From Pseudomonadota bacterium (GTDB lineage Bacteria; Myxococcota_A; UBA9160; UBA4427), in contig JAKSBN010000391.1 in NCBI GenBank assembly GCA_022361175.1, forward strand, positions 8,457 through 72,456: DNA of 64,000 nt, in the 5' to 3' direction. Numbering within the stretch: position 1 is the stretch's first letter; every line of letters starts with the position of its first letter. Positions 11,016-49,013 of this stretch are shown piece after piece. The notes beneath the pieces are model-generated. The model ran no database searches. It was not told the origin of the DNA and saw nothing but the letters and a program-made list of their open reading frames with translations. The position numbers and the translations under genes are program-made.

Positions 11016-11020
11016 GGCGG

Positions 11021-25425: not shown

Positions 25426-26886
25426 TTAGGTGCTCCGCAGCCGCGGCCACAGGCGCCGTGCCACCAGCAGGGCGATGGGCGCCAGCAAGACGATCCCGAG
25501 CCCCAAGCTCACCAAGGGCAGGCTCCCGAAGCCCAAGCGAGCGGCGACGGGAACCGGCAGCCACCAGGCCGCCGCGGCCAAGGCGAGGCCCAGGAGCGTC
25601 TGCCGAACGTCTCCGGCCCAGACCGAGAACCCCTCGCGCTGGAGGCGCCAGGCCACCACGGCGTTGCCGCAGAACGCGCCGGCCGCCACGCCCAGGATCA
25701 GTCCCGGAAGTTCGCCGACGCGATAGCCCAGCACGCAGGCGACGCCCGTGGCGAGCGTCTTCACCACGTGGGAGAGGGCCCAACTCCGAGAGTCGCCGAG
25801 CGCCAACAGCGCGCGCCCCGAGGACTCGTGCAGAAAGCCCCACCAAATCGCCAGCATCGACAGCTGGGCGATCCAGCCGGCATCGGCGTAGCGCGCGTCG
25901 TAGAGGAACGAGAAGAAGGCCGGCGCGACGAAGCCGGCGGCGGCGATGGCGAGTAGCCCGACGGGCAGGACCACGCCGCGCGCGGCGCGAAAGTCCCGGA
26001 CCAAGACGTCTCGCCCTTTGCGATGAGAGGCGGCGAGGGCGGGCATCAGCACGGTCTGAATGATGCGGCCGGAGACGTCGCGCACGACTCCGGCCAGCAG
26101 GATGCCGATGCTGTAGACGCCGAGCCGTTCGAGCGGCAGCAGCTTGCCCAGCAGCGCCACGTCGAGCCGCAGCGCCAGGAACGTGAACAGGGTGCTCACG
26201 AAGATCCACTTGCCGAAGGAGAGGATGTCCGCCGCGGCGCTTCGGTCCCAGCGCAGCCGATTGCCGGGCCCGGGGATGGCCCAGTGCGAGAAGGCCAGCC
26301 GCACCGCCGCGGCCACCAAGCCACCGGCCACCAGCGCCCAGACGGAACGGGTCCACCACGCCAGCACGACCATGGCGACCAGCGCCGCCGCCTGTCCCGC
26401 CAACTCGCTGGCGACGACGCGGCCGAGCCGAAGGCCGCGGGTCTCGGTCACCAGCTTGGTGGAGAAGAGACCCTGGAGGACGGCGGCGAACGTGGCCACG
26501 GCCAGCAGGGGCGTCAGCTGGGGCTCGCCGTAGAACGCGGCGACGGGCCAGGCGATGGCCACGCCACAGGCCCAGAGCGCGCACCCCCGCAGCAGCTGGA
26601 GCGTCCAGGCCGTGTCCAGAAAGTCCCGTTCCTCACCCCGCGCGTGACGGATGAGCGCGGGCTGGATCCCCACGTTGGAGACCATCTGCAGGCCGTTCTG
26701 AAACAGCCGCACCAGCTCCATCAAGCCGAACGCCTCGGGAAACAAGAGGCGCGAGAGAATCAGGTTCGAGAGCAGCCGGAGCCCCTGAGCGGCCCCCTGG
26801 CCCACGACGTTCACCAGCGCACCACGCGCCGCGCGTCGCGCCAGCGTCGGCTCCGGGGAGGGCCCAGGCGGCGCGGGCGCGCTCAC
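25426..26886 (-). CDS. Wzx-type polysaccharide flippase (MOP superfamily)
   Basis: About 12-14 TM helices. N-terminal LVNVVGQGAAQGLRLLSNLILSRLLFPEAFGLM is typical of polysaccharide biosynthesis proteins. GTG at 26886 overlaps the upstream TGA. Confidence 0.7.
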   Translation of the reverse strand: MSAPAPPGPSPEPTLARRAARGALVNVVGQGAAQGLRLLSNLILSRLLFPEAFGLMELVRLFQNGLQMVSNVGIQPALIRHARGEERDFLDTAWTLQLLRGCALWACGVAIAWPVAAFYGEPQLTPLLAVATFAAVLQGLFSTKLVTETRGLRLGRVVASELAGQAAALVAMVVLAWWTRSVWALVAGGLVAAAVRLAFSHWAIPGPGNRLRWDRSAAADILSFGKWIFVSTLFTFLALRLDVALLGKLLPLERLGVYSIGILLAGVVRDVSGRIIQTVLMPALAASHRKGRDVLVRDFRAARGVVLPVGLLAIAAAGFVAPAFFSFLYDARYADAGWIAQLSMLAIWWGFLHESSGRALLALGDSRSWALSHVVKTLATGVACVLGYRVGELPGLILGVAAGAFCGNAVVAWRLQREGFSVWAGDVRQTLLGLALAAAAWWLPVPVAARLGFGSLPLVSLGLGIVLLAPIALLVARRLWPRLRST

Positions 26887-28016: not shown

Positions 28017-29972
28017 CTACGGCAGCAGCACTGGCGGGGCCGGCGCGGTACCGCCACCCCCCCCACCACCGCCGCCGCCACCACCGGTGGAGGGCGGCGC
28101 GCAGGTCTCGCCGGCCAGCGCGTGGGCGCCGATGTCGAAGCCGGCGCTGCGGCAGCGCTGGAAGAAGTCCGTGTGGACGAAATTCCGCGTGTTGCGGCTG
28201 TCCGTGGCGAAGTTGTAGCCGTTGCCCGCCGGGCCGGTTCCGGGCAGCGTGGCGGAGCGGAGTCGGAAGCTCTCGGGCGTCGTGCGACCGGCGGGCGGCA
28301 CGGCGGCGACGAAGGGGTTGCCTTCATAGCGGCCGGCGGCGGTGCCCCCACTCACGGCGTTGCTGCCCCCGGCCGAATTCCAGCTGGAATCGACGCCCAC
28401 TGAGCCGCCCATGTTCGGCGCGTAGACCAGGTTGTTGATGCACTGATGCCCGGCCCCCGGCGCCGACGGGCACATCTGCAGTCCCGACCGAAAGCCGTTG
28501 CCCAGGTAGATCGTGTTCTGCAGGAACCACACGTTGTTCGTGTGGAGCCCCCCCGCATCCTGGCGCTCGACGCTGACGAACTGGGGGGCGAAGCCGTCCG
28601 GCAGACCCTGCAGATCGAAGATGTTGTTGCGGATCGTCACGTCGCCGCCCTCGACCTGGAAGCCCCGGACCAGCCCGTTGAAGCTCTCGCCGCTGAAGTC
28701 GACGGTCCAGAAGTTGCGCTCGAAGACGAAGTCCTCGACCTGGCTCCCCGGCGCGCCGTTGTTGCACTCGTCGTGCTCGCAGATGCGGACCAGATTGCCG
28801 CCGCCGGCGGTCTGGTGAAACCGGTTGTCGGAGACGATCACGTATTGGCTCGGCGTGGACGGCGTGCAGACTGCATCGGTGGGGTCGCAGCCGCGGAACT
28901 GGATGGGGTTGCGGGAACCCGCGGTGCCCGTGAAGTAGCTGTGCTGGATCACCGCGCGGTTCGTGTGGATCGATCGCACGTTGAACTCGGACGAGGGCGC
29001 CTTGTTGGTGTCGATGTCGAGCCCCATGAACATCGAGCGGGTGTTTCGCAGGAACACCGAGGAGCCCTGTCCGCCCTGGGGACGGATCGTGCACTTGAAG
29101 TCCACCAGCGCGGTCTCCGACGGAAAGCGCGGGTCGCTGGGCGAGTTCATGGTGATGCACTGGTGCCAGTTGGAGATCTCGACGTCGTAGATGGTGTCGC
29201 GACGAACGCCGAAGCCGCCGGCCCGCATGAAGGCCGTGCCGGCGCGTCCCCGCAGCTCGAGGCCCGCGATGGTCCAGCCGCTGTTGAAGATGATGCCCGA
29301 GGTGTTGTTGGAGAAGCTGCCGTTCTCGCTGTTGAGTACCGGTCGCTGGCCCGTCCCGAAGGCCCCGATCTGCGAAGGATTCGATTCGGCGCCGGGCAGA
29401 CTCACGCTGCGGCTGTGGGTGAACGTGTCGCCGCGGCGATACAGGGTCCGGCGCCCGGCGCCCGTCTGGACGGAGCTGTCGAAGCTGGCGTTCGTGACGC
29501 GTTCGGCGCCGGCGGGGCAGCCCGCGAAGTTGCCGCTGCTCGACACGCAGCGGGTGCCGCCCGCGTAGGCCGTGTCCGGGTCTTCGACCCGGACCGTGGT
29601 CGTGCGGGTGGCGCCGACCCCGTCCGGGTTGGAGAGCGTCAGTTCCACCGTATAAGTCCCGGGCTCGGTGAACAGGTGGCCGGCCACGCAGCCCTCGGCG
29701 TAGTTCTTGCTCTTCCCGCTGAGGGACCAGGAGCCCGAGTTCGGGTCGCCGAAGTCCCATTCGCAGCGCACCGTGTGGAAGGCCCGCGCAAAGTCGGGGT
29801 CGCGCACGTCGCTGGCGTCGAAGACGACCGCCAGGGGGGCGATGCCGCTGGTGCGCGTCGCCTGCAGTGTGGCCGTCGGAGCGGCGCTGGCCGCGCCGGC
29901 GAGGCAGAGGATCGCACCGGCAACCCATCCGAAGGTTCCCAGCCGGCTGGAGCCCCGTTGTCGTTGGCCCAT
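28017..29972 (-). CDS. secreted PKD-domain plus right-handed parallel beta-helix protein (candidate glycan lyase, hydrolase or epimerase)
   Basis: Signal peptide (ILCLAGAASAAP), PKD motif (WDFGDPNSG...GTYTVELTLSN) and beta-helix-like repeats (NNIFD, NNLVY, VSDNRF). The tail is STG(12)TAPAPPVLLP. ATG at 29972 checked in frame. Confidence 0.7.
   Translation of the reverse strand: MGQRQRGSSRLGTFGWVAGAILCLAGAASAAPTATLQATRTSGIAPLAVVFDASDVRDPDFARAFHTVRCEWDFGDPNSGSWSLSGKSKNYAEGCVAGHLFTEPGTYTVELTLSNPDGVGATRTTTVRVEDPDTAYAGGTRCVSSSGNFAGCPAGAERVTNASFDSSVQTGAGRRTLYRRGDTFTHSRSVSLPGAESNPSQIGAFGTGQRPVLNSENGSFSNNTSGIIFNSGWTIAGLELRGRAGTAFMRAGGFGVRRDTIYDVEISNWHQCITMNSPSDPRFPSETALVDFKCTIRPQGGQGSSVFLRNTRSMFMGLDIDTNKAPSSEFNVRSIHTNRAVIQHSYFTGTAGSRNPIQFRGCDPTDAVCTPSTPSQYVIVSDNRFHQTAGGGNLVRICEHDECNNGAPGSQVEDFVFERNFWTVDFSGESFNGLVRGFQVEGGDVTIRNNIFDLQGLPDGFAPQFVSVERQDAGGLHTNNVWFLQNTIYLGNGFRSGLQMCPSAPGAGHQCINNLVYAPNMGGSVGVDSSWNSAGGSNAVSGGTAAGRYEGNPFVAAVPPAGRTTPESFRLRSATLPGTGPAGNGYNFATDSRNTRNFVHTDFFQRCRSAGFDIGAHALAGETCAPPSTGGGGGGGGGGGGTAPAPPVLLP
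28050..28085 (-). repeat. 36-nt run of 12 consecutive glycine codons (GGN) near the 3' end of the beta-helix gene
   Basis: The forward strand reads acc gcc acc ccc ccc acc acc gcc gcc gcc acc acc, in frame with the stop at 28017-28019. Confidence 0.9.
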
Positions 29973-30299: not shown

Positions 30300-31397
30300 T
30301 TGAAGCGAGTGGCCGGACTGGGAGCGATTCTGCTGGCAGGCATGGGCTTCGCCGCGCTGGTGCTGGAGCTGGGCGTCGTGCTGCTCTTGGGAGAGCAGCC
30401 CAAGTTCCCCCGGCGCGTGGTGGGTGCGGAGTTCGGCGTTCGCATCAACGAGCCCGGCGCCCGCTACCGACATCAGTCGTCCGAAGTGGACGTGGAGTTC
30501 GAGATCAACGCCCGGGGGTTGAGGGCGCCCGAGGACTACCCCTACGCGAAGCCCGGCGGCGTCCGGCGGGTCGTGTCGCTGGGAGATTCCTTCACCGTCG
30601 GCTACGAGGTCGAGGTCGACGAGGTCTTCTCCGCCGTCCTGGAAGCGGGCTTGCGCGACCGGGGCGTGGCCGTCGAGGTGTTGAACGCCGGCGTCTCCGG
30701 CTACAGCAACGCCGAGGCGCTGCTCTACTTCCGCCGCGAACTCGTCCGCTACCAGCCGGACGCGGTGCTGCTCTCGTTCTACGGCAACGATCTGGTGGAC
30801 AACGTCCGCTCGGGGCTGTTTCGGTTGGAGGCGGGCCAGCTCGTGCAGACGGCCGATCGCTACGTGCCGGCGGGCGGCCTGGGCAACTGGCTCAATACGA
30901 ATCCCGTGTTCAACTGGTTCTCGGAGCACTCGAACGCCTTCGTGTTGGCGAAGGAGCGGGCGACGTTTCTGCTGAAGGCCGGTGCCGTCGAGGAGAACCG
31001 CGAGCACCTCGAGGGCGAGGGCAAGGGGAATGGCGCCGACGGCGACGCCCGGCTGCGCGAGCAACGCCGGCTGGCGGCGGCGATCCTGACGCAACTGGCG
31101 GAAGAGACTCGCACGCTGGGCATCCCGCTCGTCCTCCAGAGCATTCCGGTCCCGAATCGGCCGCAGAATCCCGAGCGGCTCCTGGAGCTCTTCCCCGTCG
31201 AGGAGTTCGAGCCGCGCCCGGACGTCTTGTGGTTTCCCGCAAAGCGGGTCCTGGATCCCCTGATCGGCCGCGAGAAGCTCTACCACGAGCGGTCGCACGG
31301 GCACTGGACGCCGCTGGCCCATCGCCTGGCCGGCAGCGCGCTGGCCGAGGTCTTCATCGAAGAGGTCGGATGGGGGTCTCCGGCGGCGGCGCCGTGA
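30300..31397 (+). CDS. membrane-anchored SGNH/GDSL hydrolase-acyltransferase, paralog 4
   Basis: TTG start. TM (LGAILLAGMGFAALVLELGVVLLL), block I SLGDSFTVGY, block III NAGVSGY, block V-like SHGHWTPLAH. Confidence 0.65.
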   Translation: MKRVAGLGAILLAGMGFAALVLELGVVLLLGEQPKFPRRVVGAEFGVRINEPGARYRHQSSEVDVEFEINARGLRAPEDYPYAKPGGVRRVVSLGDSFTVGYEVEVDEVFSAVLEAGLRDRGVAVEVLNAGVSGYSNAEALLYFRRELVRYQPDAVLLSFYGNDLVDNVRSGLFRLEAGQLVQTADRYVPAGGLGNWLNTNPVFNWFSEHSNAFVLAKERATFLLKAGAVEENREHLEGEGKGNGADGDARLREQRRLAAAILTQLAEETRTLGIPLVLQSIPVPNRPQNPERLLELFPVEEFEPRPDVLWFPAKRVLDPLIGREKLYHERSHGHWTPLAHRLAGSALAEVFIEEVGWGSPAAAP

Positions 31398-32868
31398 AGC
31401 CGTTGGGGCGCGGCTCCGCGACTTCGTCGGGCGCCGGCCCGGCGTCGCGCGAGTTTCCTCCCGCGCGGTTGCGGGGCCGCCGCGCCTGCTTGGGCAGCCG
31501 GTGGGCCAAGCTGTAGAGCGCTCCGGACATGAAGATCGGATAGCTGCTGTAGAAGCCGTTGGGCAGCTGGTCGAGCGCGCGGACGATCACGATCAACATC
31601 AGGCCGGCCATCAGCGCGCGGTCGCGGCGGCTGCGGATGCGTCCGAGGGATCGGAAGCCCAGGACGACGGGCAGCACGTAGAGGCCGAAGGCGCAGATGA
31701 AGCCCACCATCCCGCGACTGCCCAGCTGGATGATCCAGTAGCCGTCGGGCACCGACGGGGGGATCCCCGTCTCGGGGTCGTACACCCAGTTGCGGCTGTA
31801 GCCGCCCCAGCCGAAGACGAAGCGCTCGCGGGCCTTGGCCAGCATGCGTTCCTCGTTCTCGAAGCGGTAGTTGAGCGACTTGGCGCGGTCTTCGCTGAAG
31901 CCCGCCGAGAATTCGACGATGCCCCGCCACGGAAACAGCTCGGCCAACCGAATCGGCGGGTAGAAGGTCACGAGCACGCATCCGGCCACGGCCACCGCCG
32001 CCAGCGTGCGAACCGGAGACAACAGCAGCAGCGGATAGGCGATGACGCCCCACACCATCGCCGCGACGCTCTTGCACAGGACGAGCAGCACCGTCAGGTA
32101 GGGGGCGGCCAGCCGCCCGGTGATCGTGAACAGGCGCCGAGGCAGGGTGACCACGGGCATGCCCGCTCGGGCCAGGGCCGCGGCGGCGATCACCGCCGTG
32201 GCCATGAAGATCCCGACGGCGATGCCGCTCGGCATGAACATCATGGGCCGGTATCCGCCCCAGCGGTTGGCCTTGGCCATGGTGTTGGGATGGAAGCCGT
32301 AGGCCCAGTGGTGGAGCTGAGGGCTCATCCGCAGCTCCACGAGGATGCCGAGGGTGTACACGAGCCCCGCCAAGGCCAGCAGCGTCATCATGTCGCGCAA
32401 GTCCTTGGAGTCCCGGAAGAAGCAGCGGCCCAGGAAGAACGGCAGGCCGTAGGTGAGCGCGTCGGTGATGCAGGCCGACACCAGCTCGAAGGGCTGCATG
32501 CCCGGCACGTGTCGCGGTCCGTACCGCAGCGGGTCCATATTGGTGAAGACGGTCGCGGCGCCCCCGACGAGCATCGCCATCACCAGCCACTCGGGGACGG
32601 TGGTGCCCGGCCCCTGGCGGCGCAGGCGGCGCGGCGCCAGGTAGAGGGCCGCCGCCAGAACGCCCAGGTAGCTGATGGGCTCCTTGCCGAGGACCGGCAG
32701 CCCCGGCAGATCGAACGCGATGCGCTGGGGCAGGAACATGGCGGCGCCGAGGATCAGGCCGAAGGCGGCCACCGGCGGCCGGAAGCGGCGGAAGACGTAG
32801 AAGCAGAGCGGCACGAACAGCAGCAGCGAGAGATAGGCGAGCGGGTTGGCGTAGGCCGCGCTGTACAT
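31354..32868 (-). CDS. O-antigen ligase / Wzy-like polysaccharide polymerase (polytopic)
   Basis: About 10-12 TM helices with a large loop (RFENEERMLAKARERFVFGWGGYSRN). The start is 3 nt after the upstream stop. Confidence 0.55.
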   Translation of the reverse strand: MYSAAYANPLAYLSLLLFVPLCFYVFRRFRPPVAAFGLILGAAMFLPQRIAFDLPGLPVLGKEPISYLGVLAAALYLAPRRLRRQGPGTTVPEWLVMAMLVGGAATVFTNMDPLRYGPRHVPGMQPFELVSACITDALTYGLPFFLGRCFFRDSKDLRDMMTLLALAGLVYTLGILVELRMSPQLHHWAYGFHPNTMAKANRWGGYRPMMFMPSGIAVGIFMATAVIAAAALARAGMPVVTLPRRLFTITGRLAAPYLTVLLVLCKSVAAMVWGVIAYPLLLLSPVRTLAAVAVAGCVLVTFYPPIRLAELFPWRGIVEFSAGFSEDRAKSLNYRFENEERMLAKARERFVFGWGGYSRNWVYDPETGIPPSVPDGYWIIQLGSRGMVGFICAFGLYVLPVVLGFRSLGRIRSRRDRALMAGLMLIVIVRALDQLPNGFYSSYPIFMSGALYSLAHRLPKQARRPRNRAGGNSRDAGPAPDEVAEPRPNGFTAPPPETPIRPLR

Positions 32869-32871
32869 GAC

Positions 32872-35058
32872 TCAGCCGCGGGCACCCGGCAACAGAGGCA
32901 GGCTGCGAGCCCGGCGCCCCGTGGCCGCGTAGAGGGCATTGGCCACGGCGGGGGCCACGGGAGGCGTGCCGGGCTCTCCGACGCCGCCCGGGCGGGCGTC
33001 GCTCTCCAGCAGGTGCACCTCGACCCGCGGCGCCTCCGCGAGGCCGAGAATCCGGTAGTCGTGGAAGTTGCTCTGGGCGACGGCCCCGTCGCGGACGTCG
33101 ACCTTGCCGAACAGCGCGCCGGAGAGGCCGAAGAGCGTGCCTCCCTCCATCTGCGCGCGGACGGTGTCGGGGTGCACGACGGTGCCGCAGTCGACCGCGC
33201 ACACGATCCGGTCCACCCGGAACTCGTCTCCGTCTCCCGCGGAGACTTCCGCCACCTGGCAGACGGTCGTCTCGAAGGCGGTGTGCAGCGCGAGTCCCCG
33301 CCCGCGGCCTGCGCCCGGGGGTGCGTCCCAGCCGGCGGCCGCGACGGCGGTCTCCAACACGCGTCGTCGCCGTGGATCTCCGGACAGCAGGTGCCTTCGG
33401 AGGGCGAGCGGGTCCTTGCCGCCGGCGTGGGCGATCTCGTCCAGGAAGCTCTCGACGAAGAAGGCGGTCTGGGAGTTCCCCACGGACCGCCACCAGCCGA
33501 TGGGCAGGGCCGCCGGCACGGACGTGTATTCCACGCGCTGGTGGGGAATCGCGTAGAACCCGCGGTCCGCTCCCTCGACCGCCACGCGCGACGCGGGGGC
33601 GTCGAGCCAGTAGGGCAGCCGCCCGGTGGCCGCATCCGGCAGGGCGTCGGGGACCAGGCCGGCATCGAGCTGCCGCTGCAGCCAGCCCCCGGCCCCCTGG
33701 AGCCAGAGCGGTGAGTCGCGCGCTTCCCAGTGCGGGCCGGCGATGCGCTGCCGCAGCGAGATCGGCCACCCCTCGGCGTCCAGCTCCGCCCACAGGCGGG
33801 CCGCGAAGGCGGGCCGGTAGTAGTCGTGGCGGACGTCCTCTTCGCGGGACCACAGGATCTGCACGGGCCGGCCCACGGCGCGGGAGGCGCGGGCGGCCTG
33901 GAGGGCCGCGTCGGGTTCGAAACGACGGCCGAAGCCGCCCCCCAGGTAGGTGGTGTGGAGCCGCACTCGGTTCACCGGGAGCTCCAGCTCGCGGGCCAGG
34001 GATTCGCGCAGCCGTTTCTGCGCTTGGGTGGGAGCCCAGACCTCGCAGCCGTCCGGCCGGGCGTCCACCGTGCAGTTCTGCGGCTCCATCGTGAGGTGGG
34101 CCAGGAAGGGCACTTCGTAGTCGGCCTCGACGCGCGACGCGACGGCGCCGTGCGCAGCGGGACCGCCGTGCTCGCTGGCCGTGACCCCGGCGGTCTCCAG
34201 CTCGGCCCGGAGCTTGGCGGCGAAGGCGTCGCTGTCGAAGCCGCCCGCCGAAAACGCGGGGCGGGCGGCGTCGAGTCCGCGGCGCGCCTGCCAGTAGTGA
34301 TCGGCCAGGACGGCGATGCCGTCCGGGAGCTCCACCACTTCGCGCACGCCGGTGACCGCCAGGGCGGCCTCCCGGTCGAAGCCCTGAAGCGCACCTCCGC
34401 CCGCCGGCGCGCAGGAGACGGCGCCGTACAGCATGTCCTTCACCCGGACGTCGATGCCGAAACGAGCGCTGCCGGCCACCTTGGCGGGAACGTCGACCCG
34501 CGGCACCGAACGCCCGATCAGCCGAAAGGCAGCCGGGTCCTTCAGGCGCGGTCGCTCCGGAACGGCGAGCGCCTCGGCGCGGGTCGAGACGTCGGCATAG
34601 GCGACCCGGCGACCGCTCGCCGGATGGAGCACGTGACCTTCGGCGGTCTGGCATTCGCCCGCTGGAACGCCCAGCGCCTCGGCCCCGGCGCGAACCAGCA
34701 TCTCGCGGGCGGCGGCTCCGGCCTGGCGCAGGGGTTCGAACGATTTGCGCACGCTCGAGCTGGCCCCCGTCGACATGGGTCGCGACGGCCCCGTCTGCAC
34801 GGGAAAGGCGACGCGGACGCTCTGCCAGTCGACGTCCAGCTCTTCGGCCAACAGCATGGGCAGGGCGGTGTGGATCCCCTGGCCCATTTCCGACTTCTCC
34901 ACGAACAGGGTGGTGACGCCGTCGACGCCGATCAGAATCCAGGGACCGAGGGACGCCGGACCGGCCGCCCGGGCCGACCCCGGCGCGAACCCCAGCAGCA
35001 GCCCCGCGGTGGCCCCGCGCAGGAAGTCACGCCGCTTGAGCTTGATGAGCGCCGGCAC
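32872..35058 (-). CDS. molybdopterin-binding subunit of a xanthine-dehydrogenase-family aldehyde oxidoreductase (IorB-like), with a Tat signal
   Basis: Twin-arginine signal KRRDFLRGATAGLLLG. Family blocks: FVEKSEMGQGIHTALPM, HLTMEPQNC, TYLGGGFGRR, GEPGTPPVAPAVANA. GTG at 35058 lies 2 nt after the small-subunit stop. Confidence 0.8.
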   Translation of the reverse strand: MPALIKLKRRDFLRGATAGLLLGFAPGSARAAGPASLGPWILIGVDGVTTLFVEKSEMGQGIHTALPMLLAEELDVDWQSVRVAFPVQTGPSRPMSTGASSSVRKSFEPLRQAGAAAREMLVRAGAEALGVPAGECQTAEGHVLHPASGRRVAYADVSTRAEALAVPERPRLKDPAAFRLIGRSVPRVDVPAKVAGSARFGIDVRVKDMLYGAVSCAPAGGGALQGFDREAALAVTGVREVVELPDGIAVLADHYWQARRGLDAARPAFSAGGFDSDAFAAKLRAELETAGVTASEHGGPAAHGAVASRVEADYEVPFLAHLTMEPQNCTVDARPDGCEVWAPTQAQKRLRESLARELELPVNRVRLHTTYLGGGFGRRFEPDAALQAARASRAVGRPVQILWSREEDVRHDYYRPAFAARLWAELDAEGWPISLRQRIAGPHWEARDSPLWLQGAGGWLQRQLDAGLVPDALPDAATGRLPYWLDAPASRVAVEGADRGFYAIPHQRVEYTSVPAALPIGWWRSVGNSQTAFFVESFLDEIAHAGGKDPLALRRHLLSGDPRRRRVLETAVAAAGWDAPPGAGRGRGLALHTAFETTVCQVAEVSAGDGDEFRVDRIVCAVDCGTVVHPDTVRAQMEGGTLFGLSGALFGKVDVRDGAVAQSNFHDYRILGLAEAPRVEVHLLESDARPGGVGEPGTPPVAPAVANALYAATGRRARSLPLLPGARG

Positions 35059-35060
35059 GC

Positions 35061-35507
35061 TCAGTCCCCTCCGGCGGCGCGGCGAATCGCTCGGCGAATG
35101 CGCGGGTAGGTTCCGCAGCGACAGAGGTTGGTGATCGACGCGTCGATCTCGTCCTCGCTCGGATCGGGGTTCTCGGCCAGCAGCGCGGCGGCGGCCATCA
35201 CCATGCCCGGTTGGCAGTAGCCGCACTGGGGAACCTGCTCGGCGATCCAGGCGCGCTGCACCGGGTGGTCGGCCGCGGCGGCCAGCCCCTCGATGGTGGT
35301 GATGCGCTGGCCCTCCACCTGGCCCACCGGAACCGTGCAGGCGCGGAGCGCGCGACCGTCCACGTGCACCGTGCAGGCGCCACAGCGCCCGATGCCGCAT
35401 CCGAACTTCGTGCCCGTCAGGTTGAGCCAGTCGCGCAGCACCCACAGCAGCGGCGTGTCGGCCTCGACCGCGAGCTCGACTTCTCGACCGTTGACCGTGA
35501 GGCGCAT
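35061..35507 (-). CDS. (2Fe-2S)-binding small subunit of the aldehyde oxidoreductase (IorA/CoxS-like)
   Basis: Two cluster motifs: [11 protein letters not shown] and CGYCQPG...CRCGTY. 148 aa. Confidence 0.85.
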
Positions 35508-35563: not shown

Positions 35564-36529
35564 TCAAGCCGAGCCGTTCGCCGGGCGGCGGCGCGGGAAG
35601 AGCGTGTAGCGGAGGAAGTCCCGGAAGAAGTGGGGTGGCTGGGGATAGGGCTTGCGCTGAAGCCAGCACTTGGCGCGACCGAGCAGGAAGCCCGTGATCC
35701 ACAGCGCGTTGGCCAGCCACAGCTGCAGCCGTCCGTGGTTCTTCAGCCAGTAGTGCCGGCGGCTCTCGAACCAGTAGGGCGGGCGGCGCCGGCTCCAGTC
35801 GGTCCAACCGGTGGAGGCCGAGCCCACGTGCTGGACGCGGCTGCTGGGGACGTACCAGGTCGCCCAGCCCGCCGCCTGCGCGCGCCGACAGAAGTCGGCC
35901 TCCTCGAAGTAGAGGAAGTAGCGCTCGTCGAAGGGCCCGATGGCCTCGAAGACCTGGCGCCGAATCAGCATGCTGGCGCCCGCCAGCCAGTCGACCCGCG
36001 TGTCGGTGTGGGGCACGGGTTTGGAGACCACCCAGCGATCCAGCAGCCGACTCACCACGCCGAGGCCGAGGCGGTTCTCGAACTCCGCGGGCAGCGAGTG
36101 GAAGCGAAACGCCGTGTCGTGGGTGGCGCCGTCGGTGCCGTAGATGTGGCTGCCGGCGATCCCCGCCTGGGGGTGGGCTTCGAGAAACTCCACCAGGAGC
36201 GCCAGCGCACCGGGATCGGGCTCGGCGTCGGAGTTCAGGAGGTAGACGTAGTCGACCGGCGGCCCGGTCTCGGCGGCGGCGCGCACCCCCTGATTGACTC
36301 CGTAGGCGAAGCCGCCGTTGCGAGGAGACGCCACCAGGTGGACGCGCTCCTCGGCTCCGAGATCGCGGACGGCCGCCTGGAGCTTCTCGAAGGAGCCGTC
36401 CTGCGAGTCGTTGTCCACCAGGATGACGCGGCTGCCGGGGAGCCCCTCGAGTTCGCGCAGGCTGCTCCGCAGGGCCGCCAGCGTGAGCTCGGGCGTCCGG
36501 TAGTTGATGACGACGACCGCCAGCCGCAT
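35564..36529 (-). CDS. family 2 glycosyltransferase (WbbL/rhamnosyltransferase-like)
   Basis: [12 protein letters not shown]...[10 protein letters not shown]...[11 protein letters not shown]...NSDAEP...[11 protein letters not shown]. The ATG at 36529 shares one base with the PKS stop. Confidence 0.8.
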
Positions 36530-42500: not shown

Positions 42501-42942
42501 AGTCGACCACCTCCGGATTCCCCAGCACGTTGAACATGAAGTAGGAGTTCATGCCGCAGCCGGCGAAGACTCCCACGGACCCCTCGAACGCGCTGGGCGG
42601 ATGCCCGGCGACCTCCAGGGCTTCCCACGCCACTTCCAAGAAGTGCCGGTGCTGCGGATCGAGAATCGCGGCGTCCTTGGGACCGAACCCGAAGAAGCCC
42701 GCGTCGAACAGGGCGACGTCGTCGAGCGGTCCGCCGGCCTTGACGTAGCTGCCGTGCTCCAAAAGCTTGGGGTCCACGCCCGCGTCGCGCAGCTCGTCGT
42801 CGGAGTAGCGCTTCACGCACTCCACGCCGTCGGCCAGGTTGCGCCAGAAGCGGGCCACGTCGGGCGATCCGGCGAAGCGGCAGGAGAGCCCCACCACCGC
42901 GATGTCGGAATCGGAAACTTCGAAGTCGTCGCGTTCGCTCAT
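36529..42942 (-). CDS. single-module type I polyketide synthase, KS-AT-KR-DH-PCP-TE
   Basis: Approximate nt spans follow. KS 41623-42903 (TACSTS, ETHGTGT, NIGHT). AT 40453-41340 (GHSLGE). KR structural plus catalytic halves 38863-40125 ([16 protein letters not shown]). DH 37957-38805 ([32 protein letters not shown]). Carrier 37423-37650 (FFELGGHSL). TE 36568-37371 (GFSGG, GDHDSM). Confidence 0.95.
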
Positions 42943-43817
42943 GACCCGCCCGCCGGCTGCTCCCGGCTCGAGTGTCGTTCACCCCGTGGGTGGCCCGTCG
43001 AGGGAAAAGGGTGACATTCGCTCCCAAAACCCCTTGGGAAGCCACCCAGATCGCTCCGGGCGCCCGTTTCGGCGACCCAAACGCCGAGGGCCGCCACCAG
43101 CAGCCAGGGCACGTGGGTCAACAGACCCCGCGCCAGTGCTTCGGAGCCCGACGCCAACACCGCGGCTGCCAGCGTGACCGCCAGCGCCTGGGCGGGCAGG
43201 GCGCAGGCCGCCCAAACCGCGGCGCGCCGGCCCGCCTCGGTCAAACGGGCCCCCCGCCGCAGCGAGGCGTACCAGCCGAGACCCGCCGCCAGACAGACCA
43301 GCGAGAGACCTCCGTCGGGCGCCTCCAGCACCAGGCGTGCCGCGTCCGTCTCGAGGAAGGTCCAGGGATAGGCGGTGACCACCGAGAGGGTCGCACCGAG
43401 CGGCTCGAGCAGCAGCCGCGCGACGTGGGCGTGGAGCGTCTCGAGCCAGGGGCTCTGCATCCGCGCCAACTGGCTCGGCAGGGGAATCAGGAAGAGGGCC
43501 AGGATCCAGGTGCCGGCTCTCCCGCGTCCGGTCCAGCGGGCGAGCCCGAACGCCGACAGCCAGACCCACGGCCGAGCCAAGCGCGTCATGCCGGCGCCCA
43601 GGAACACCAGCTCCATGGCGATGCCGAGCCCCAACCACCAGAGACCGTCCCGCGCCGGGGGCCCGGGCGCTCCGTCCCGCCGCAGCTGCAACCACAACAG
43701 CGGGGCGAAGAGCAGGGCGTAGCGGGCCGGAGGGTGTTGGAGCTGGTGGACCAGGAGATCGACGACCACCGGGGAGGCCGCAACGGCCCAGGCGAGCCAG
43801 AGCAGCCGCGCCGACAT
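42939..43817 (-). CDS. polytopic membrane protein, divergent exosortase/EpsH-like
   Basis: About 8 TM helices and 292 aa. It occupies the EpsH position directly after the chain-length determinant and kinase-like genes. One Cys in a TM context (LSLVCLAAGLGW) and a late His (LLTHVPWLL). The canonical CSG and N..R signatures are not seen. Confidence 0.4.
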   Translation of the reverse strand: MSARLLWLAWAVAASPVVVDLLVHQLQHPPARYALLFAPLLWLQLRRDGAPGPPARDGLWWLGLGIAMELVFLGAGMTRLARPWVWLSAFGLARWTGRGRAGTWILALFLIPLPSQLARMQSPWLETLHAHVARLLLEPLGATLSVVTAYPWTFLETDAARLVLEAPDGGLSLVCLAAGLGWYASLRRGARLTEAGRRAAVWAACALPAQALAVTLAAAVLASGSEALARGLLTHVPWLLVAALGVWVAETGARSDLGGFPRGFGSECHPFPSTGHPRGERHSSREQPAGGS

Positions 43818-45230
43818 CTAGGCGATGCGCGAGACGGAGCCCAACACCGGAGCTCCGCTCTTGGTTTCGAGCTGATCGCCGGCCACCAACACCGGGTCCA
43901 GGAGCTCGAACAGCACCCCGAGCCCGCCGCAGAGACCGGCCGCCGCGACGAGCCCCATGGCCAACAGCTTCCAGCGCGAGTTCATGGGGCGCGTCGGGGG
44001 CCGGGCCGAGTCCATCACGCTGACCTGGGCGCCTTCCTGGGCGCTCTCGATGCTGACGGCGAGCTCGGCGTCTTTCGACTTGCGGAGGAACTCCAGGTAG
44101 CTCTCGCGCAGCACGCTCGCCTTTTCCTCCAGGGTCGCCAGCTCCTCCTGGCGTCGGGGGACCCGCGCGACCCGGGCGTCCAGCTCGGCCAGCTCCGTCT
44201 CGGTGTCGGTCAGCTGCTGGTGGAGCCGCTCCAGGGAGAAGCGCACCTCGCGCAGCAGCAGCGTGCGCGTGCTGGAGGTCGCGGGATTGTCCGCGGAGGC
44301 CGCCAGTTCCGCCTCGACGACCGCGATCCGGCGCTTCAGCGACAGCACCTGCGGGTGTTCGTCCGTGTAGATCGCAGCCGTTCGGTCGAGCTCGGTGCGG
44401 AGCTGGGCGAGCCGCGATTCGACGGAGCCGGGCTCCTGGTCGCTGGCCGCGATCATCGCCATGCGGCTTTCCGCTTCGACGATCTGATCCGACAGGGACT
44501 GCCGCTGGGCCTGCAGCCGCTCGAGCTTGCTCATCAGAGTGGGGAGCTCGGAGGGCAGCTCGCCCCGATAGCGCTCCTGAAACTCCGTGATGAGCTGGGT
44601 CTGCTCGCGCAGGGCCGCTTCGGCGCGTTCCAGCTCCTGGTTCACGAAGCGCGCGATGCGCTGCGCCTGCTCGTTCCGGGCGCGGACGCTGGCGTCGGTA
44701 AAGAAGCCCGTCAGTCGGTTCACCACCCGGGCGGCGGTTTCCGGCTCGCCGTAGGTGAACGTCACCACGAACACCTTGGACGTGGAGCCGTCACGCCGCC
44801 GGCGCCGCGGATCGGAGCCGATCTGGTCCACGACTTCGAAGCCGATCGAGCCCCGGAGCCACATCACCAATTCCCGGGCAGGTCGCTTGTCCCGCTCCTC
44901 GGGGTACAGCTGAAACTCCTCGAGGATCTCGAACAGCCGATCGCGGGAGAGCACCTCTCCCACCATGGCGTTCAGCTGCTCCAGGGGATCTTCCTGCACG
45001 GTGGAGCGGATCATCTCGTCCGGGATCTTGGCGTTGCTGACCAGGATCGAAGCCCGCGCTTGGTACGTGGGCTGGTAGAGGAGCACCGCGGCGGCGGTTC
45101 CCCCCAGCCCCACCAGCAGCCCCAGCAGCATCCACGGCCAGCGGCGCATGGGAATGCCCAGCGGGTCGCGCGCGAAGTCGGGCAGACCGCCGCCGTCCTG
45201 GAGATCCAGATCGTCGTCGTCGTAGGCCAT
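43818..45230 (-). CDS. polysaccharide chain-length determinant / co-polymerase (Wzz, GumC/EpsF-like)
   Basis: N-terminal TM (WMLLGLLVGLGG), a long coiled-coil periplasmic region, and a C-terminal TM (WKLLAMGLVAAAGLCGGLGVLF). ATG at 45230 checked in frame. Confidence 0.8.
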   Translation of the reverse strand: MAYDDDDLDLQDGGGLPDFARDPLGIPMRRWPWMLLGLLVGLGGTAAAVLLYQPTYQARASILVSNAKIPDEMIRSTVQEDPLEQLNAMVGEVLSRDRLFEILEEFQLYPEERDKRPARELVMWLRGSIGFEVVDQIGSDPRRRRRDGSTSKVFVVTFTYGEPETAARVVNRLTGFFTDASVRARNEQAQRIARFVNQELERAEAALREQTQLITEFQERYRGELPSELPTLMSKLERLQAQRQSLSDQIVEAESRMAMIAASDQEPGSVESRLAQLRTELDRTAAIYTDEHPQVLSLKRRIAVVEAELAASADNPATSSTRTLLLREVRFSLERLHQQLTDTETELAELDARVARVPRRQEELATLEEKASVLRESYLEFLRKSKDAELAVSIESAQEGAQVSVMDSARPPTRPMNSRWKLLAMGLVAAAGLCGGLGVLFELLDPVLVAGDQLETKSGAPVLGSVSRIA

Positions 45231-45232
45231 GT

Positions 45233-46171
45233 TCAGGCCTCTCGCGTGTCGCGCGGTGTTTCGTCCGAGTAGTACCCGTACCGCGCACGGTGACGCGAAC
45301 CCGGCGCGTCGTTCAGAAAACTGCCGAGCAGGACTCCGGGAGGCAGGGTCTCGACCATGTCCCGAAACGCCCCGCAGCGCGAGTGACGCGCGCGGGCGAC
45401 TGCGATGCAGGAGCGTACGTGGGGGAGCAGGATCTCCGTGTCCGGCACCAGCAGCAGCGGCGCCGAGTCGATCACCACCAGGTCGTAGCGGCTTTCCAGC
45501 TGGCGCAGCAGCTCGGGAAGCTCGGCGCGACAGAGCAGCTCGCTGGCCTGACTCTCGGGGCGGCCCACGGGAAAGATGTCGAGGCCCGGAACGTCCGTCC
45601 GGACGCCGGCTTCCTCCAGCGGGATCTGCCCCCGGAGCACCTGCTCGACCCCCGCCTCCAGGTGCGCGCCGAGATAGCGGCCGACCGAGGGGCGGCGCAG
45701 GTCCAGGTCCACCAAGGCGACGCGGCTCTCGCCGCCGAGCGCGGTCAGGGTCAGCGCCAGGTTGCAGCTGGTGGTGGTCTTGCCCTCGAGGCGGACGGCG
45801 CTCACCAGCAGGACGCTCTTCGCTTGCCGCTGGGCGAGCGTGCGCCGGACGTGGATGGCGAATTGGCGATAGGCCTCCGCAGCGGCCGACTTGGGCTCGA
45901 TCAAGGCCAGGCGCGCCGGCCACGCCCCGTCCTTGTGCCGCGAGAGGTGGATGCGGTGCGCGAGCTCGCCGCCGGCGGCAATCGACGGGACCGGTTCGGG
46001 CGCCGGGGCCGCGGCGGCGGTGCGCGGAAGCGTGGGTGCAGACGCCGCCCGGCCGGCCGGCGCCTCCACGGGCTCGGGCTGCGGGAAGGGGCCGTCGGCG
46101 CGCGTCCGCTGCGAACGCTCCTCGCGACGCTCTTCGCGAGCGCGCTTGAGGGCCTCTGCGATCTCGCCCAC
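45233..46171 (-). CDS. BY-kinase-like P-loop ATPase (CpsD/EpsG-like)
   Basis: Walker A LEGKTTTSCNLA, Walker A'/B VALVDLDLRRP and LVVIDSAP, short Tyr-containing tail RYGYYSDE. GTG start is adjacent to the upstream stop. Confidence 0.75.
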   Translation of the reverse strand: MGEIAEALKRAREERREERSQRTRADGPFPQPEPVEAPAGRAASAPTLPRTAAAAPAPEPVPSIAAGGELAHRIHLSRHKDGAWPARLALIEPKSAAAEAYRQFAIHVRRTLAQRQAKSVLLVSAVRLEGKTTTSCNLALTLTALGGESRVALVDLDLRRPSVGRYLGAHLEAGVEQVLRGQIPLEEAGVRTDVPGLDIFPVGRPESQASELLCRAELPELLRQLESRYDLVVIDSAPLLLVPDTEILLPHVRSCIAVARARHSRCGAFRDMVETLPPGVLLGSFLNDAPGSRHRARYGYYSDETPRDTREA

Positions 46172-47023
46172 CTAGCCCTCCACTCGGCTCAGCTGGTCGC
46201 GCAGGCTGGCGCCGCGCGACGCGTTCATGGACTTGGCCTTCTGCTCGACCGTGCTCACCGGGATCGGCCGTACTTCCTGGGAGTACGCCGCCAGGAGCAC
46301 GCGGTCGGCCAGCAGGCTGAGCAGGCGCGGACAGCCGGCGCTGAAGGAATAGAAGACCGACTCCGCCCCCGGCGCGAAGATGTCCTCGTAGCGCCCGCCC
46401 GCCACGTGCAGCCGGTGCGCCAGGTAGTCGCCCACGTCGCCGGGTGCCAGCGACTCCATGTGATGCTCCACGGCGATGCGCTGGCGCAGCTGGCGCAGCG
46501 AGGGCTGGGCGAGCATGTGCAGGAGCTCGGGCTGGCCCACCAGGACGATCTGCATCAGCTTCTCGGTGTCGGTTTCCAGGTTCGAGAGCAGCCGCACTTC
46601 CTCGAGCGTCTCGGGCGACAGGTTCTGCGCCTCGTCGATGATCAGCACCGTGTTCCGTCCCGCGCGCAGGCGGTCGAGCAGCACCTTGTTGAGCGCGATG
46701 ACGTAGTCCGCCTTCGACTCGAAGTTCCCCTCGATCCGGAATTCGGCGGCGATCAGTTTCAGGAGGTCGATGGCGGTCAGGTTGCCGGTGTTGAGGACCA
46801 GCGCGACATCGGTATCGGGCGAGAGTTGGTCCAGGGCGGCGCGCAACAGGGTCGTCTTCCCCGTGCCCACCTCACCGGTCAGCAGCAGGAAGCCCTTGCG
46901 GCGGGAAATGCCGTAGACGAGCGCTGCCAAGCCTTCCTGGTGGGTGTCGGACAGCCACAGGAAGCGGGGATCCGGGGTCAGCGCGAACGCCGGCTCGCGT
47001 AGGCCGAAGAATGCCTCGTACAT
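46172..47023 (-). CDS. ExeA/GspA-like AAA ATPase (PEP-CTERM-locus secretion ATPase-like)
   Basis: MYEAFFGLREPAF start, Walker A TGEVGTGKTT, Walker B VLIIDEAQNL, and LVGQPEL. Confidence 0.8.
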   Translation of the reverse strand: MYEAFFGLREPAFALTPDPRFLWLSDTHQEGLAALVYGISRRKGFLLLTGEVGTGKTTLLRAALDQLSPDTDVALVLNTGNLTAIDLLKLIAAEFRIEGNFESKADYVIALNKVLLDRLRAGRNTVLIIDEAQNLSPETLEEVRLLSNLETDTEKLMQIVLVGQPELLHMLAQPSLRQLRQRIAVEHHMESLAPGDVGDYLAHRLHVAGGRYEDIFAPGAESVFYSFSAGCPRLLSLLADRVLLAAYSQEVRPIPVSTVEQKAKSMNASRGASLRDQLSRVEG

Positions 47024-47375
47024 GAGCGACCTTGTGGGAACTCCCAGTAGAAGATCATACGCCAGTCCGATGGCGCCCCCCGGCGCCAGACGACCCAGCT
47101 CGAGATTCCGGTAGCAGGGATCGTGCCGCTCCCCCAAGGGGAGAGCCTTCTCTGAATCTTACGCAGAAACCGCCTTGGTGGGTGTCCCCCCCGCATGTTA
47201 TGGGTACGGAAGTCGGGGAACTCCGCAGGGATTTCGCTCGTCTGCCAGCCCGCTCCGCTATGCAAAACCCTGCACCCCCTGGCGGTAGAGGGTATCCGAT
47301 TGCTCACATTGCCCGTTCCGCGTCGAGGAAAACGGCCTCTCCAGTGGGATTGGGGTTTTTCCCCGAGCAGCGGAC

Positions 47376-47609: not shown

Positions 47610-49013
47610 ATGCTACGGGAACACAAGCGGCAGCTCTATTGGGCATGGATGGCCACCGACCTGGCCATCGGCACCAGCGTATTCATCTCGTTGGTCTTCC
47701 AGCCCGCGCTTCAGCGCGACGGCTTCAGCGAAGGCGGCGTGGCGCTGGCTGCACTGGGGGCCGTCGTGTGCCTGGCCTGGCCGCTGATCTTCGAACGGCT
47801 GGGCGTCTACGCCTCACAGCGCCGCGAGAGCTTGGGCGGCCTCCTGGGCTCGCTCGCCGCTGCCCACGCCTTGGGCGCCATGTGCCTCTCCGCGGTCGCC
47901 TTCACCCTGGACGCCCGGGTCGCGCCGCTCTTCCCCTTCATCTACGCGGCCACGGTGTTCGGCCTGCAGGGCAGCATGCGCGTGGTGGTGTTCTCGGTGC
48001 TGCGGGCCGTGCGGCGCTCGGGCGGAAACTTCCGCAACGTGCTCATCATCGGGGCGGGCCCCCGGGCCGCCGAGGTGCGCGCCACCATCGAGGAGCACCC
48101 GGAGTGGGGCCTGCGCATCGTCGGCTACGTGGACGACGGCGGTGGCGAATTCGTGCCCCGCGTGCCCGCGGAGGAGATCCACAAGCTGATGGATCTCCCC
48201 ACCTTGCTGCGCGACGAGAACATCGACGAAGCGTTGGTGGCGATCCCGCGGACGATGCTGCCCTTCATCACTCCGGTGGTGCGCGAGTGCGCGCTGGTGG
48301 GCGTGCCGGTCACGCTGTTGACCGACCTCTTCGGCGATCAGCTGCCGCCTCCCCGGGTGGGGCGCTTCGACTCCCTCGCCACGCTGAGTTTTGCCCCGGT
48401 TCACCACAACGACATCGAACTCGGCATCAAGCGCAGCCTGGACATCGCGGGAGCGACCGCGGTCCTGTTGCTCACCGCGCCGTTGCTGCTCCTGTCGGCT
48501 CTGGCCATCAAGGTGTCGTCGCCGGGGCCGGTGCTGTTCCGCCAGGTGAGAAGCGGGCTCCACGGACGTCGCTTCAACATGCTGAAGCTCCGCACCATGT
48601 GCATGAACGCCGAGTCCATGAAGGCGGAGCTCTTGCACCTGAACGAGATGGACGGGCCGGTCTTCAAGATCAAGGACGACCCCCGGGTCACGCTCGTGGG
48701 CCGAGTGCTGCGCCGCTTCAGCATCGACGAGCTGCCGCAGCTGTGGAACGTGTTGCGGGGAGACATGAGCCTGGTGGGTCCGCGACCTCCCACGCCGGAC
48801 GAGGTGTGTCAGTACGTGGGAAGCGACCGCCGCCGGCTGTCGATGCGGCCCGGGATCACGTGCCTGTGGCAGATCAGCGGGCGCAACGAAGTCTCGTTCG
48901 TCGAATGGATGAAGCTCGACCTCGAGTACATCGACAACTGGTCGTTGGCCGAGGACGTGCGCATCCTGATCCGCACGATCCCCGAAGTTCTGCGAGCGCG
49001 CGGCGCCAGCTGA
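47610..49013 (+). CDS. undecaprenyl-phosphate sugar phosphotransferase (WbaP/EpsB-type priming enzyme)
   Basis: N-terminal TM bundle, central Rossmann-like NVLIIGAGPRA, and C-terminal bacterial sugar transferase domain (KRSLDIAGA...SPGPVLFRQVRSGLHGRRFNMLKLRTM...DELPQLWNVLRGDMSLVGPRP). Confidence 0.9.
   Translation: MLREHKRQLYWAWMATDLAIGTSVFISLVFQPALQRDGFSEGGVALAALGAVVCLAWPLIFERLGVYASQRRESLGGLLGSLAAAHALGAMCLSAVAFTLDARVAPLFPFIYAATVFGLQGSMRVVVFSVLRAVRRSGGNFRNVLIIGAGPRAAEVRATIEEHPEWGLRIVGYVDDGGGEFVPRVPAEEIHKLMDLPTLLRDENIDEALVAIPRTMLPFITPVVRECALVGVPVTLLTDLFGDQLPPPRVGRFDSLATLSFAPVHHNDIELGIKRSLDIAGATAVLLLTAPLLLLSALAIKVSSPGPVLFRQVRSGLHGRRFNMLKLRTMCMNAESMKAELLHLNEMDGPVFKIKDDPRVTLVGRVLRRFSIDELPQLWNVLRGDMSLVGPRPPTPDEVCQYVGSDRRRLSMRPGITCLWQISGRNEVSFVEWMKLDLEYIDNWSLAEDVRILIRTIPEVLRARGAS

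Follow-up and report, generated by a model that had tools for sequence, protein, structure and literature searches.

Exosortases are defined by an almost perfectly conserved set of Cys, Arg and His residues (PMC1569441; 10.1101/2023.06.07.544157). In a 64,000-nucleotide stretch of DNA from a bacterium assigned to the Myxococcota_A (contig JAKSBN010000391.1 of assembly GCA_022361175.1; this whole stretch is called the window below), the gene at 42939-43817 stands in a polysaccharide operon at the place of the exosortase EpsH, and its product does not carry this set. The question is what such a protein is, and what it may do. The original prediction, made from the letters of the window, offered two readings: a very divergent sortase with a new class of substrates, or a non-catalytic scaffold for the polyketide synthase (PKS) encoded by the adjoining gene. 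Here we report that the protein, referred to as the Cys-less paralog, is by profile homology a member of the exosortase superfamily, and that it is probably a non-proteolytic paralog, which would serve as a subunit of the polysaccharide machinery and still use the old pocket for binding.

Homology to the exosortases

The gene has an intact frame, and its G+C content at third codon positions (GC3, 0.86) resembles that of the neighbouring genes. The AlphaFold2 model of the 292-residue product, built from an alignment of 129 sequences (pLDDT 91.7, pTM 0.85), contains eight long transmembrane (TM) helices, in agreement with the size and the approximate helix number of the original prediction. Between TM5 and TM6 the chain forms a helix, placed in the periplasm, and a sheet of three strands. 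Residues 1-254 correspond to the conserved 8-TM core, while residues 255-292 form an unconserved tail, which in the model is disordered, cytoplasmic and of low confidence.

When searched alone against the exosortase and archaeosortase models of Pfam and NCBIfam, the Cys-less paralog gave no match even at E ≤ 10, and no other model of the two databases matched it usefully. The TIGR04178 signature (cut-off 23 bits) was matched neither by the Cys-less paralog at E ≤ 10 nor by any family member at E ≤ 0.01, and TIGR03109, the XrtA model (cut-off 208 bits), gave no match for the Cys-less paralog and weak matches for 3 of 129 family members. The relationship emerges at the level of the family. When 1.84 billion cluster representatives were scanned in full with HMMER, 335 relatives reached E ≤ 0.001, and 178 of these E ≤ 1e-10; the closest is only 44-45% identical to the Cys-less paralog. 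Wherever any source names the family members, they are annotated as 'hypothetical protein'. PF09721 (Exosortase_EpsH) was matched at E ≤ 0.01 by 63 of the 129 members tested, and the homolog P0002 scored 32.1 bits, over the gathering cut-off of 25.7, while an NCBIfam scan of the family gave weak, sub-threshold matches to various Xrt models. Thus, the hidden Markov model (HMM) search that had been proposed as a check is negative for the protein itself and positive for its family.

As there is no exosortase structure on which the Cys, Arg and His positions could be superposed, profile-profile alignment was used in its place. The family profile aligned with that of 22 true exosortases, a reference set taken from this genome and its relatives, over 235 columns with an hhalign probability of 98.3% (E 1.7e-14). 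A sequence search of the PDB with the family profile found no related solved structure, and a Foldseek search of the AlphaFold2 model against the PDB gave no match at E ≤ 0.001. Models of Wzy polymerases, O-antigen ligases, MOP flippases and transporters in Pfam and NCBIfam were matched neither by the Cys-less paralog nor by the 129 members. In a FastTree phylogeny, a branch of length 1.8 with support 1.0 separates 147 family members from the 22 true exosortases.

Because of this family-level evidence (the PF09721 matches and the hhalign result), and not on its own scores, the Cys-less paralog is, by homology, a true but very divergent member of the exosortase (EpsH) superfamily. By the same profile comparisons and the tree, its family is an unnamed, conserved and distinct clade of that superfamily; no NCBIfam model covers it, and a literature search for Cys-less or pseudo-exosortases found no description.

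Replacement of the catalytic motifs

Six residues were found to be perfectly conserved in exosortases by Haft et al. (2006), who proposed the Cys of Cys-x-Gly as the nucleophile (PMC1569441), and Cys, Arg and His are the suspected triad (Haft 2023; 10.1101/2023.06.07.544157). We counted conservation in the 147 family members against the 22 true exosortases of the same lineage; the correspondence of the motifs is identical in the MAFFT and hhalign alignments, and their coordinates are listed in Table 1. Column 168 is Cys in 22/22 true exosortases and in 0/147 family members, where it is Asp (112), Gln (9), His (6), Glu (5), Asn (4) or another residue, while G170, the Gly of Cys-x-Gly that is common to the true exosortases, is kept in 145/147. 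Columns 210 and 213 are Asn and Arg in all 22 true exosortases; the family has Gln at the former in 139/147 (95%) and Ala, Val, Gly, Leu or Ile at the latter, with no Arg in 147 sequences. The third motif, with His at column 234 and Gly at column 238 in 22/22 true exosortases, has become (D/T/S)-(H/Q)-x-x-W, the Trp being present in about 114 of the 147 members.

These results bear out the statement of the original prediction that the textbook signatures are lacking: the C-S-G context and H-x-x-x-G are both absent from the Cys-less paralog, which, having no Asn at all, therefore has no N-x-x-R motif. The 'lone' Cys and the 'late' His reported with it need correction. There are three Cys residues (C175, C205 and C268), none of which is conserved in the family, and the His, H235, lies one residue past the position aligned with the exosortase His, in a column that is His in 55/147 members. 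C175 was also considered as a migrated nucleophile and was rejected, this column being Ala, Val, Phe or Pro across the family. The family alignment contains no conserved Cys, Ser or Thr nucleophile, and 13 of the 147 members have no Cys at all.

In the alignments, all three signature motifs are replaced across the whole family, and therefore Cys-dependent cleavage or transpeptidation of PEP-CTERM proteins should not be possible. Although it is a superfamily member by homology, the Cys-less paralog has, judged by these columns, none of the features that define an exosortase enzyme. The two outcomes that the original prediction had named as speaking against it, a match to an unrelated transporter family and an aligned Cys-Arg-His triad, were looked for, and neither arose.

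The family has a conservation pattern of its own. Two positions, 112 and 114, never vary, and about 10 more are near-invariant; the residues conserved by the family itself are D20, H24, W30, R32, Y33, E69, R82, E126, W182 and R230. Nearly all the conserved family residues appear to lie toward the periplasmic helix ends, where Haft placed the exosortase triad, as judged from the helix order of the model and the positive-inside rule. Among them, R82, Q210, W182, G170 and P-x-P form a small near-invariant set on the predicted periplasmic side. An acidic residue is found somewhere in positions 166-169 in 120/147 members. Asp168 itself does not seem to be essential, because 35/147 members (24%), all of which keep R82 and Q210, have Gln, Asn, His, Glu, Tyr, Ala, Trp, Val, Ser or Gly in its place.

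The rate of change was compared with that of XrtA. The ratio of nonsynonymous to synonymous substitutions (dN/dS) was uninformative for same-genus orthologs, as the pairs are 29-36% identical and dS is saturated, so that pairwise identity relative to XrtA was used instead. In the seven genomes that have both proteins, the mean identity is 31% for the Cys-less paralogs and 58.5% for XrtA, with the Cys-less paralogs lower in 21/21 pairs; in this comparison the pairs are related and not independent, and orthology is assumed. The family thereby seems to evolve about twice as fast as XrtA.

Distribution, gene order and fusions in relatives

The relatives are marine or other uncultured Myxococcota metagenome-assembled genomes. 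The family profile gave strong matches, of 134-272 bits and nearly all free of an internal stop codon, in 24 of the 41 genomes searched from the same family or order; the weak matches (33-64 bits) in these genomes are true exosortases, which are present in 41/41. Of 301 genomes sampled evenly across the phylum, 27 contain the family, all of them in the order of the window. With the window's own genome not counted, 26 of the 47 sampled genomes of this order have it, and 0 of the 254 elsewhere.

A search of genome contigs with the Cys-less paralog as a single protein found no relative, and relatives were sought by anchoring on the conserved ATPase and by a profile search of related genomes. Twenty loci around family members were compared. 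The commonest order, found in L017 and L019, is ATPase, kinase, chain-length determinant, family member and EpsI; L030 and L034 have the same order without an adjacent EpsI. EpsI follows the family gene directly or lies close by in 10 of the 20 loci, and in 3 others it is found within 8 kb. L020 and L021 differ from the commonest order in having a PKS, 44% identical to that of the window, where the ATPase would be, upstream of the kinase. These are the only two of the 20 loci with a homologous PKS, and the coupling to the PKS appears to be lineage-specific.

In L016, a true XrtA is divergently adjacent to the family member; a jackhmmer search of the ATPase-anchored loci with the exosortases of the window's genome found a true XrtA in L016 and in no other locus. 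L016 comes from a complete genome and has the Cys-less paralog with EpsI downstream and XrtA divergent, the two frames at 9610-10821 (-) and 10350-11354 (+) overlapping at their 5′ ends. In L036, L037, L050, L051, L052 and L054, a lone EpsI gene immediately precedes those of the ATPase, kinase and chain-length determinant, with no exosortase of any kind within the 10-kb flanks.

Some family members are fused to other domains. The Cys-less domain and a GT4 glycosyltransferase form one uninterrupted open reading frame (ORF) in L018 (9476-11776, +; 767 codons) and in L023 (8187-10565, -; 793 codons), both counted from stop to stop. The GT4 parts of these two ORFs share 49% identity; within the genome of the window, they match best the GT4 downstream of XrtA and EpsI on contig C178. 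P0045 carries a GT4 domain, the fusion partner in P0140 is a Wzx-type flippase domain, and P0134 has an N-terminal polysaccharide deacetylase domain. The fusion partners are all polysaccharide enzymes, and the C-terminal fusions attach at the predicted cytoplasmic end, which in the window is the unconserved tail, its last codons overlapping the start of the PKS gene.

The operon in the window

The features of the operon are listed in Table 1. Because the three upstream genes best match the XrtA-type ATPase, autokinase and chain-length determinant (TIGR03015, TIGR03018 and TIGR03007, all under the curated cut-offs), the Cys-less paralog stands in the EpsH position, as had been claimed for it. 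The ATPase is 64-76% identical in relatives. Of the components that mark the locus of an exosortase system, the ATPase, kinase and chain-length determinant of XrtA type are present, and EpsI is adjacent in many relatives and not in the window. The Cys-less paralog gene is predicted to be translationally coupled on both sides, because the TAG stop of the chain-length determinant gene is followed at once by its ATG, and its own stop codon overlaps the ATG of the PKS gene in an ATGA. The divergent arrangement of the priming glycosylphosphotransferase recurs in L017, L019, L030 and L034. The cluster already has a Wzy-like protein of its own (31354-32868), together with a Wzx flippase (25426-26886). 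Particular to the window are the Asp/Gln/Trp replacement signature, the absent adjacent EpsI and the tight coupling to the PKS.

Midway along the polysaccharide operon, the GT2 and Wzy-like genes flank a gene (32872-35445, minus strand) for the large subunit of a molybdopterin oxidoreductase with a twin-arginine translocation (Tat) signal (RRDFLRG).

Table 1 The Cys-less paralog, its motif sites and the neighbouring genes in the window
Feature	Position	Strand	Evidence
GT2 glycosyltransferase, downstream of the PKS	35564..36529	minus	homologs adjoin family members in L032 and L034
Type I PKS, 2137 residues	36529..42942	minus	NF045894 (PKS_plus_SDR), 1052 bits
Cys-less exosortase-fold protein (putative pseudo-exosortase) gene	42939..43817	minus	ORF of 292 residues; family search, AlphaFold2 model, hhalign
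Thr234-His235-Val-Pro-Trp238, at the exosortase His-x-x-x-Gly site in TM8	43104..43118	minus	codons verified
Gln210-Ala-Leu-Ala213, at the exosortase Asn-x-x-Arg site in TM7	43179..43190	minus	codons verified
Asp168-Gly169-Gly170, at the exosortase Cys-x-Gly site, periplasmic start of TM6	43308..43316	minus	aligned to A-C-S-G; codons verified
Pro112-Leu-Pro114 (P-x-P)	43476..43484	minus	147/147 family members, 22/22 true exosortases
Arg82, near the periplasmic end of TM4	43572..43574	minus	143/147 family members, 13/22 true exosortases
Chain-length determinant (Wzz/GumC type)	43818..45230	minus	TIGR03007, 162 bits, under the cut-off of 279
Bacterial tyrosine (BY) kinase-like ATPase (XrtA-associated tyrosine autokinase type)	45233..46171	minus	TIGR03018, 106 bits, under the cut-off of 231
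ExeA-like AAA ATPase, XrtA/PEP-CTERM-associated type	46172..47137	minus	TIGR03015, 273.6 bits, under the cut-off of 324.5
Priming polyprenyl glycosylphosphotransferase, divergently transcribed	47610..49013	plus	TIGR03025, 381.9 bits, over the cut-off

PEP-CTERM sorting elsewhere in the genome

The assembly of this genome consists of 528 contigs. Two of its proteins, encoded on contigs C178 and C397, pass PF09721 strongly, and both pass TIGR04178 (the two scores being 69.7 and 53.1 bits). The C178 protein is a bona fide XrtA (213.3 bits against the TIGR03109 cut-off of 208) with the motifs A-C-S-G, N-A-L-R and I-H-E-F-Q-G, and EpsI and a GT4 are encoded downstream of it; the C397 protein is a second exosortase. 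About 50 PEP-CTERM matches over the cut-off are found in the genome and none on the contig of the window (C453), which agrees with the earlier observation that no PEP-CTERM substrate is visible in the window. The two true exosortases appear to account for these approximately 50 proteins, and PEP-CTERM sorting in this organism would be the task of the bona fide XrtA and the second exosortase on other contigs. A second set of ATPase, kinase and chain-length determinant is present on C51. With true exosortases and PEP-CTERM proteins on other contigs, the window therefore contains a paralogous, more diverged export set that includes the Cys-less paralog, the canonical sorting system being encoded elsewhere.

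A stand-alone EpsI is encoded at C64:2657-3346 (+). In a midpoint-rooted tree of EpsI proteins, with support values not considered, it clusters with the EpsI proteins encoded alongside Cys-less paralogs in relatives, and the XrtA-linked EpsI of C178 is the outgroup. The EpsI gene on C64 adjoins genes for a carbamoyltransferase, for a formyltransferase/adenylation/luciferase-like protein of nonribosomal peptide synthetase (NRPS) type, and for a phosphopantetheinyl transferase (PPTase). A partial EpsI at C26:1-489, 89% identical to that of C178 and with a GT4 match after it, could reflect strain variation or contaminating sequence (bin contamination 5.65%).

Possible substrates

The beta-helix protein encoded at 28017-29972 (minus strand), which had been named for comparison as a possible substrate, ends in twelve Gly residues and TAPAPPVLLP. 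Its homolog near a family member in L017 (13621-15744, +) ends in ...GALGALGVPGQPLLMP (GVPGQPLLMP), and a small secreted protein beside the EpsI of C64 (C64:3369-3899, +) ends in ...PEPLGQPGRPVLVEP (GRPVLVEP). All three secreted proteins have a Gly/Pro-rich linker and then a short hydrophobic tail capped by Pro, with no membrane helix and no basic cluster. The tail pattern P-x-L-L-x-P has 5 matches in the proteome (about 3500 predicted proteins) against 1.65 expected, and a crude screen of the proteome for tripartite C-terminal tags gave PEP-CTERM as the sole recurrent class, so that the scan for shared tags suggested earlier yielded no other. Every known substrate of an exosortase, archaeosortase or rhombosortase has a membrane helix and a basic cluster (PMC1569441; 10.1101/2023.06.07.544157). 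The resemblance between the tails is real but thin, and these sequences appear to give no support to a new substrate class.

Proposed function and alternative explanations

The Cys-less paralog appears to have the marks of a pseudoenzyme: a homologous fold, lost catalytic residues, an intact and widely conserved gene, and an active paralog in the same genome. It would be a non-proteolytic membrane subunit of a Wzx/Wzy-type exopolysaccharide assembly and export complex, in which the former active-site pocket may hold a ligand, either a transmembrane tail or a lipid-linked glycan, and the partner EpsI. The best EpsI candidate in this genome would be encoded in trans, on C64. The cytoplasmic C-terminus may recruit a cytoplasmic biosynthetic enzyme, such as the fused GT4 in two relatives and the coupled PKS here. 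This agrees in part with the second reading of the original prediction: a non-catalytic core is suggested by the profile homology, by the loss of Cys, Arg and His throughout the family and by its fast evolution. A scaffold for the PKS is too narrow a wording, because in relatives the usual place of the family gene is between the chain-length determinant and EpsI, with a homologous PKS in so few loci.

Several observations weigh against this proposal. There is no EpsI on the contig of the window and none beside the Cys-less paralog gene, and the fragmentation into 528 contigs makes the arrangement of EpsI in trans uncertain. The proposed partners (EpsI, chain-length determinant and PKS) are candidates drawn from gene order and fusions, and the PDB was found to hold no exosortase structure on which to superpose the model. 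In addition, Asp at the former Cys site (76%), Gln at the former Asn site (95%) and the conserved D20, H24, R32, E69, R82 and E126 look more like a repurposed site than a decayed one. It is possible, though unlikely, that the protein is instead an active enzyme with changed chemistry, its pocket rebuilt around Asp168, Gln210, Arg82, Glu126, Asp20 and His24. Such an enzyme would work on the periplasmic side of the inner membrane; it might, for instance, carry out acid/base hydrolysis or a transfer with a lipid-linked glycan as substrate, or attach a PKS-made lipid to the polymer. An acidic residue is found at the exact Cys position in 76% of the family and within positions 166-169 in the 120 members counted above, Q210 and R82 are conserved at 95% and 97%, several family-specific charged residues lie toward the predicted periplasmic TM ends, and the fusions are to polysaccharide enzymes and to nothing related to proteins. 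Against this, position 168, where the putative nucleophile or base would sit, freely accepts Q, N, H, Y, A, W, V, S or G while all else is retained, the overall sequence constraint is about half that of XrtA, and no likeness to a known glycan- or lipid-transferring membrane enzyme was found in Pfam, NCBIfam or the PDB. A bolder form, to which we give slightly less credence still, is that the exosortase fold was repurposed into a new membrane enzyme or receptor, whose outward pocket (R82, Q210, D168, E126, D20 and H24) would act on a lipid-linked glycan and possibly join the PKS product to the exopolysaccharide, as a 'sortase' of lipid to glycan and not of protein. If the pocket was repurposed, exosortases and EpsI in general would dock onto the polysaccharide assembly machinery through it.

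The other explanations fare worse on the same evidence. The first reading of the original prediction, a very divergent functional sortase acting on a new class of substrates, of which the beta-helix protein with its Gly12 and Pro-rich tail would be an example, finds some encouragement in the Gly-rich linker and P-x-L-L-x-P shared by this protein and its L017 homolog, and in the ...GRPVLVEP end of the C64 protein. It is nevertheless improbable, as the family conserves no Cys, Ser or Thr nucleophile and includes 13 members free of Cys, the tails have neither the membrane helix nor the basic cluster seen in every known substrate (PMC1569441; 10.1101/2023.06.07.544157), the tail pattern has 5 proteome matches where 1.65 are expected, and no second class of tripartite tag recurs. 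A decaying, functionless copy of an exosortase would explain the loss of all catalytic residues and the fast divergence, yet we consider it very improbable for a gene with an intact frame, a GC3 of 0.86 and coupling on both sides, with strong matches in 24/41 relatives, 335 cluster representatives and frames intact across dozens of genomes; the fold is also confidently modelled (pLDDT 91.7), positions 112 and 114 are invariant with some ten others nearly so, and two of the three former catalytic positions are still occupied by polar residues. That an unrelated transporter, or a polymerase resembling Wzy or the O-antigen ligases, has come to occupy the EpsH slot would suit a multi-TM protein in a polysaccharide locus that has no exosortase HMM match of its own. 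This we regard as scarcely credible, given the profile-level homology to exosortases (98.3%) and the PF09721 matches of half the family, the lack of a match to any such family, and the Wzy-like protein and Wzx flippase that the cluster already has.

Comparison with known systems

A large, conserved clade with the exosortase fold, an EpsI partner and its usual position in the polysaccharide export operon, but with none of the catalytic residues, suggests that this fold has a job in polysaccharide assembly that is free of proteolysis. To our knowledge, exosortases apart from ArtA have barely been studied experimentally. The family may offer a handle on the function of EpsI and on the physical tie between protein sorting and the export of slime polysaccharide, and its fusions to GT4, flippase and deacetylase domains, together with the coupling to a PKS, point to concrete candidate interaction partners. 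It also carries a risk for annotation, since family genes picked up through PF09721 would wrongly count as sortases.

According to the work of Abdul Halim et al. (2018), as cited in PMC6098224, ArtA of Haloferax volcanii is the sole superfamily member whose conserved residues have been shown by mutagenesis to be needed for processing. The membrane fold is homologous to that of the Cys-less paralog; according to the same work ArtA needs its conserved Cys and Arg, whereas the Cys-less paralog has Asp and Ala at these positions, and by that standard it should therefore be inactive as a sortase. The rhomboid proteases provide an analogy, not a homology: iRhom and Derlin are dead paralogs with partner-binding or trafficking roles shown by experiment (PMC6451368). 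As with the Cys-less paralog, the fold is kept and conserved, and the dead proteins coexist with active paralogs. In contrast, iRhom and Derlin are eukaryotic and of an unrelated fold, and for the Cys-less paralog the non-catalytic function is so far only inferred.

The closest comparison is with XrtA itself. EpsI (TIGR02914/PF11984), the usual partner or C-terminal domain of XrtA, is near the Cys-less paralog in 10 of the 20 loci, as it is with XrtA, while in the window the usual pairing is missing and an EpsI of the matching clade is encoded on C64. With exosortase A/EpsH (XrtA; PF09721, TIGR02602, TIGR03109, TIGR04178; PMC1569441) the Cys-less paralog shares the superfamily, the 8-TM architecture, P-x-P and the Gly of C-x-G, and the genes of both occupy the same niche, with the ATPase, kinase and chain-length determinant ahead of them and EpsI behind. 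The three motif positions are likewise predicted near the periplasmic ends of three consecutive helices (PMC1569441). In contrast to XrtA, the Cys-less paralog changes five of the six residues perfectly conserved in Haft et al. (2006), namely the Cys, Asn, Arg, His and the Gly of H-x-x-x-G, and its family stands on a long, fully supported branch of its own, evolves about twice as fast and has no TIGR04178 signature. The Cys-less family coexists with the true exosortases and does not replace them.

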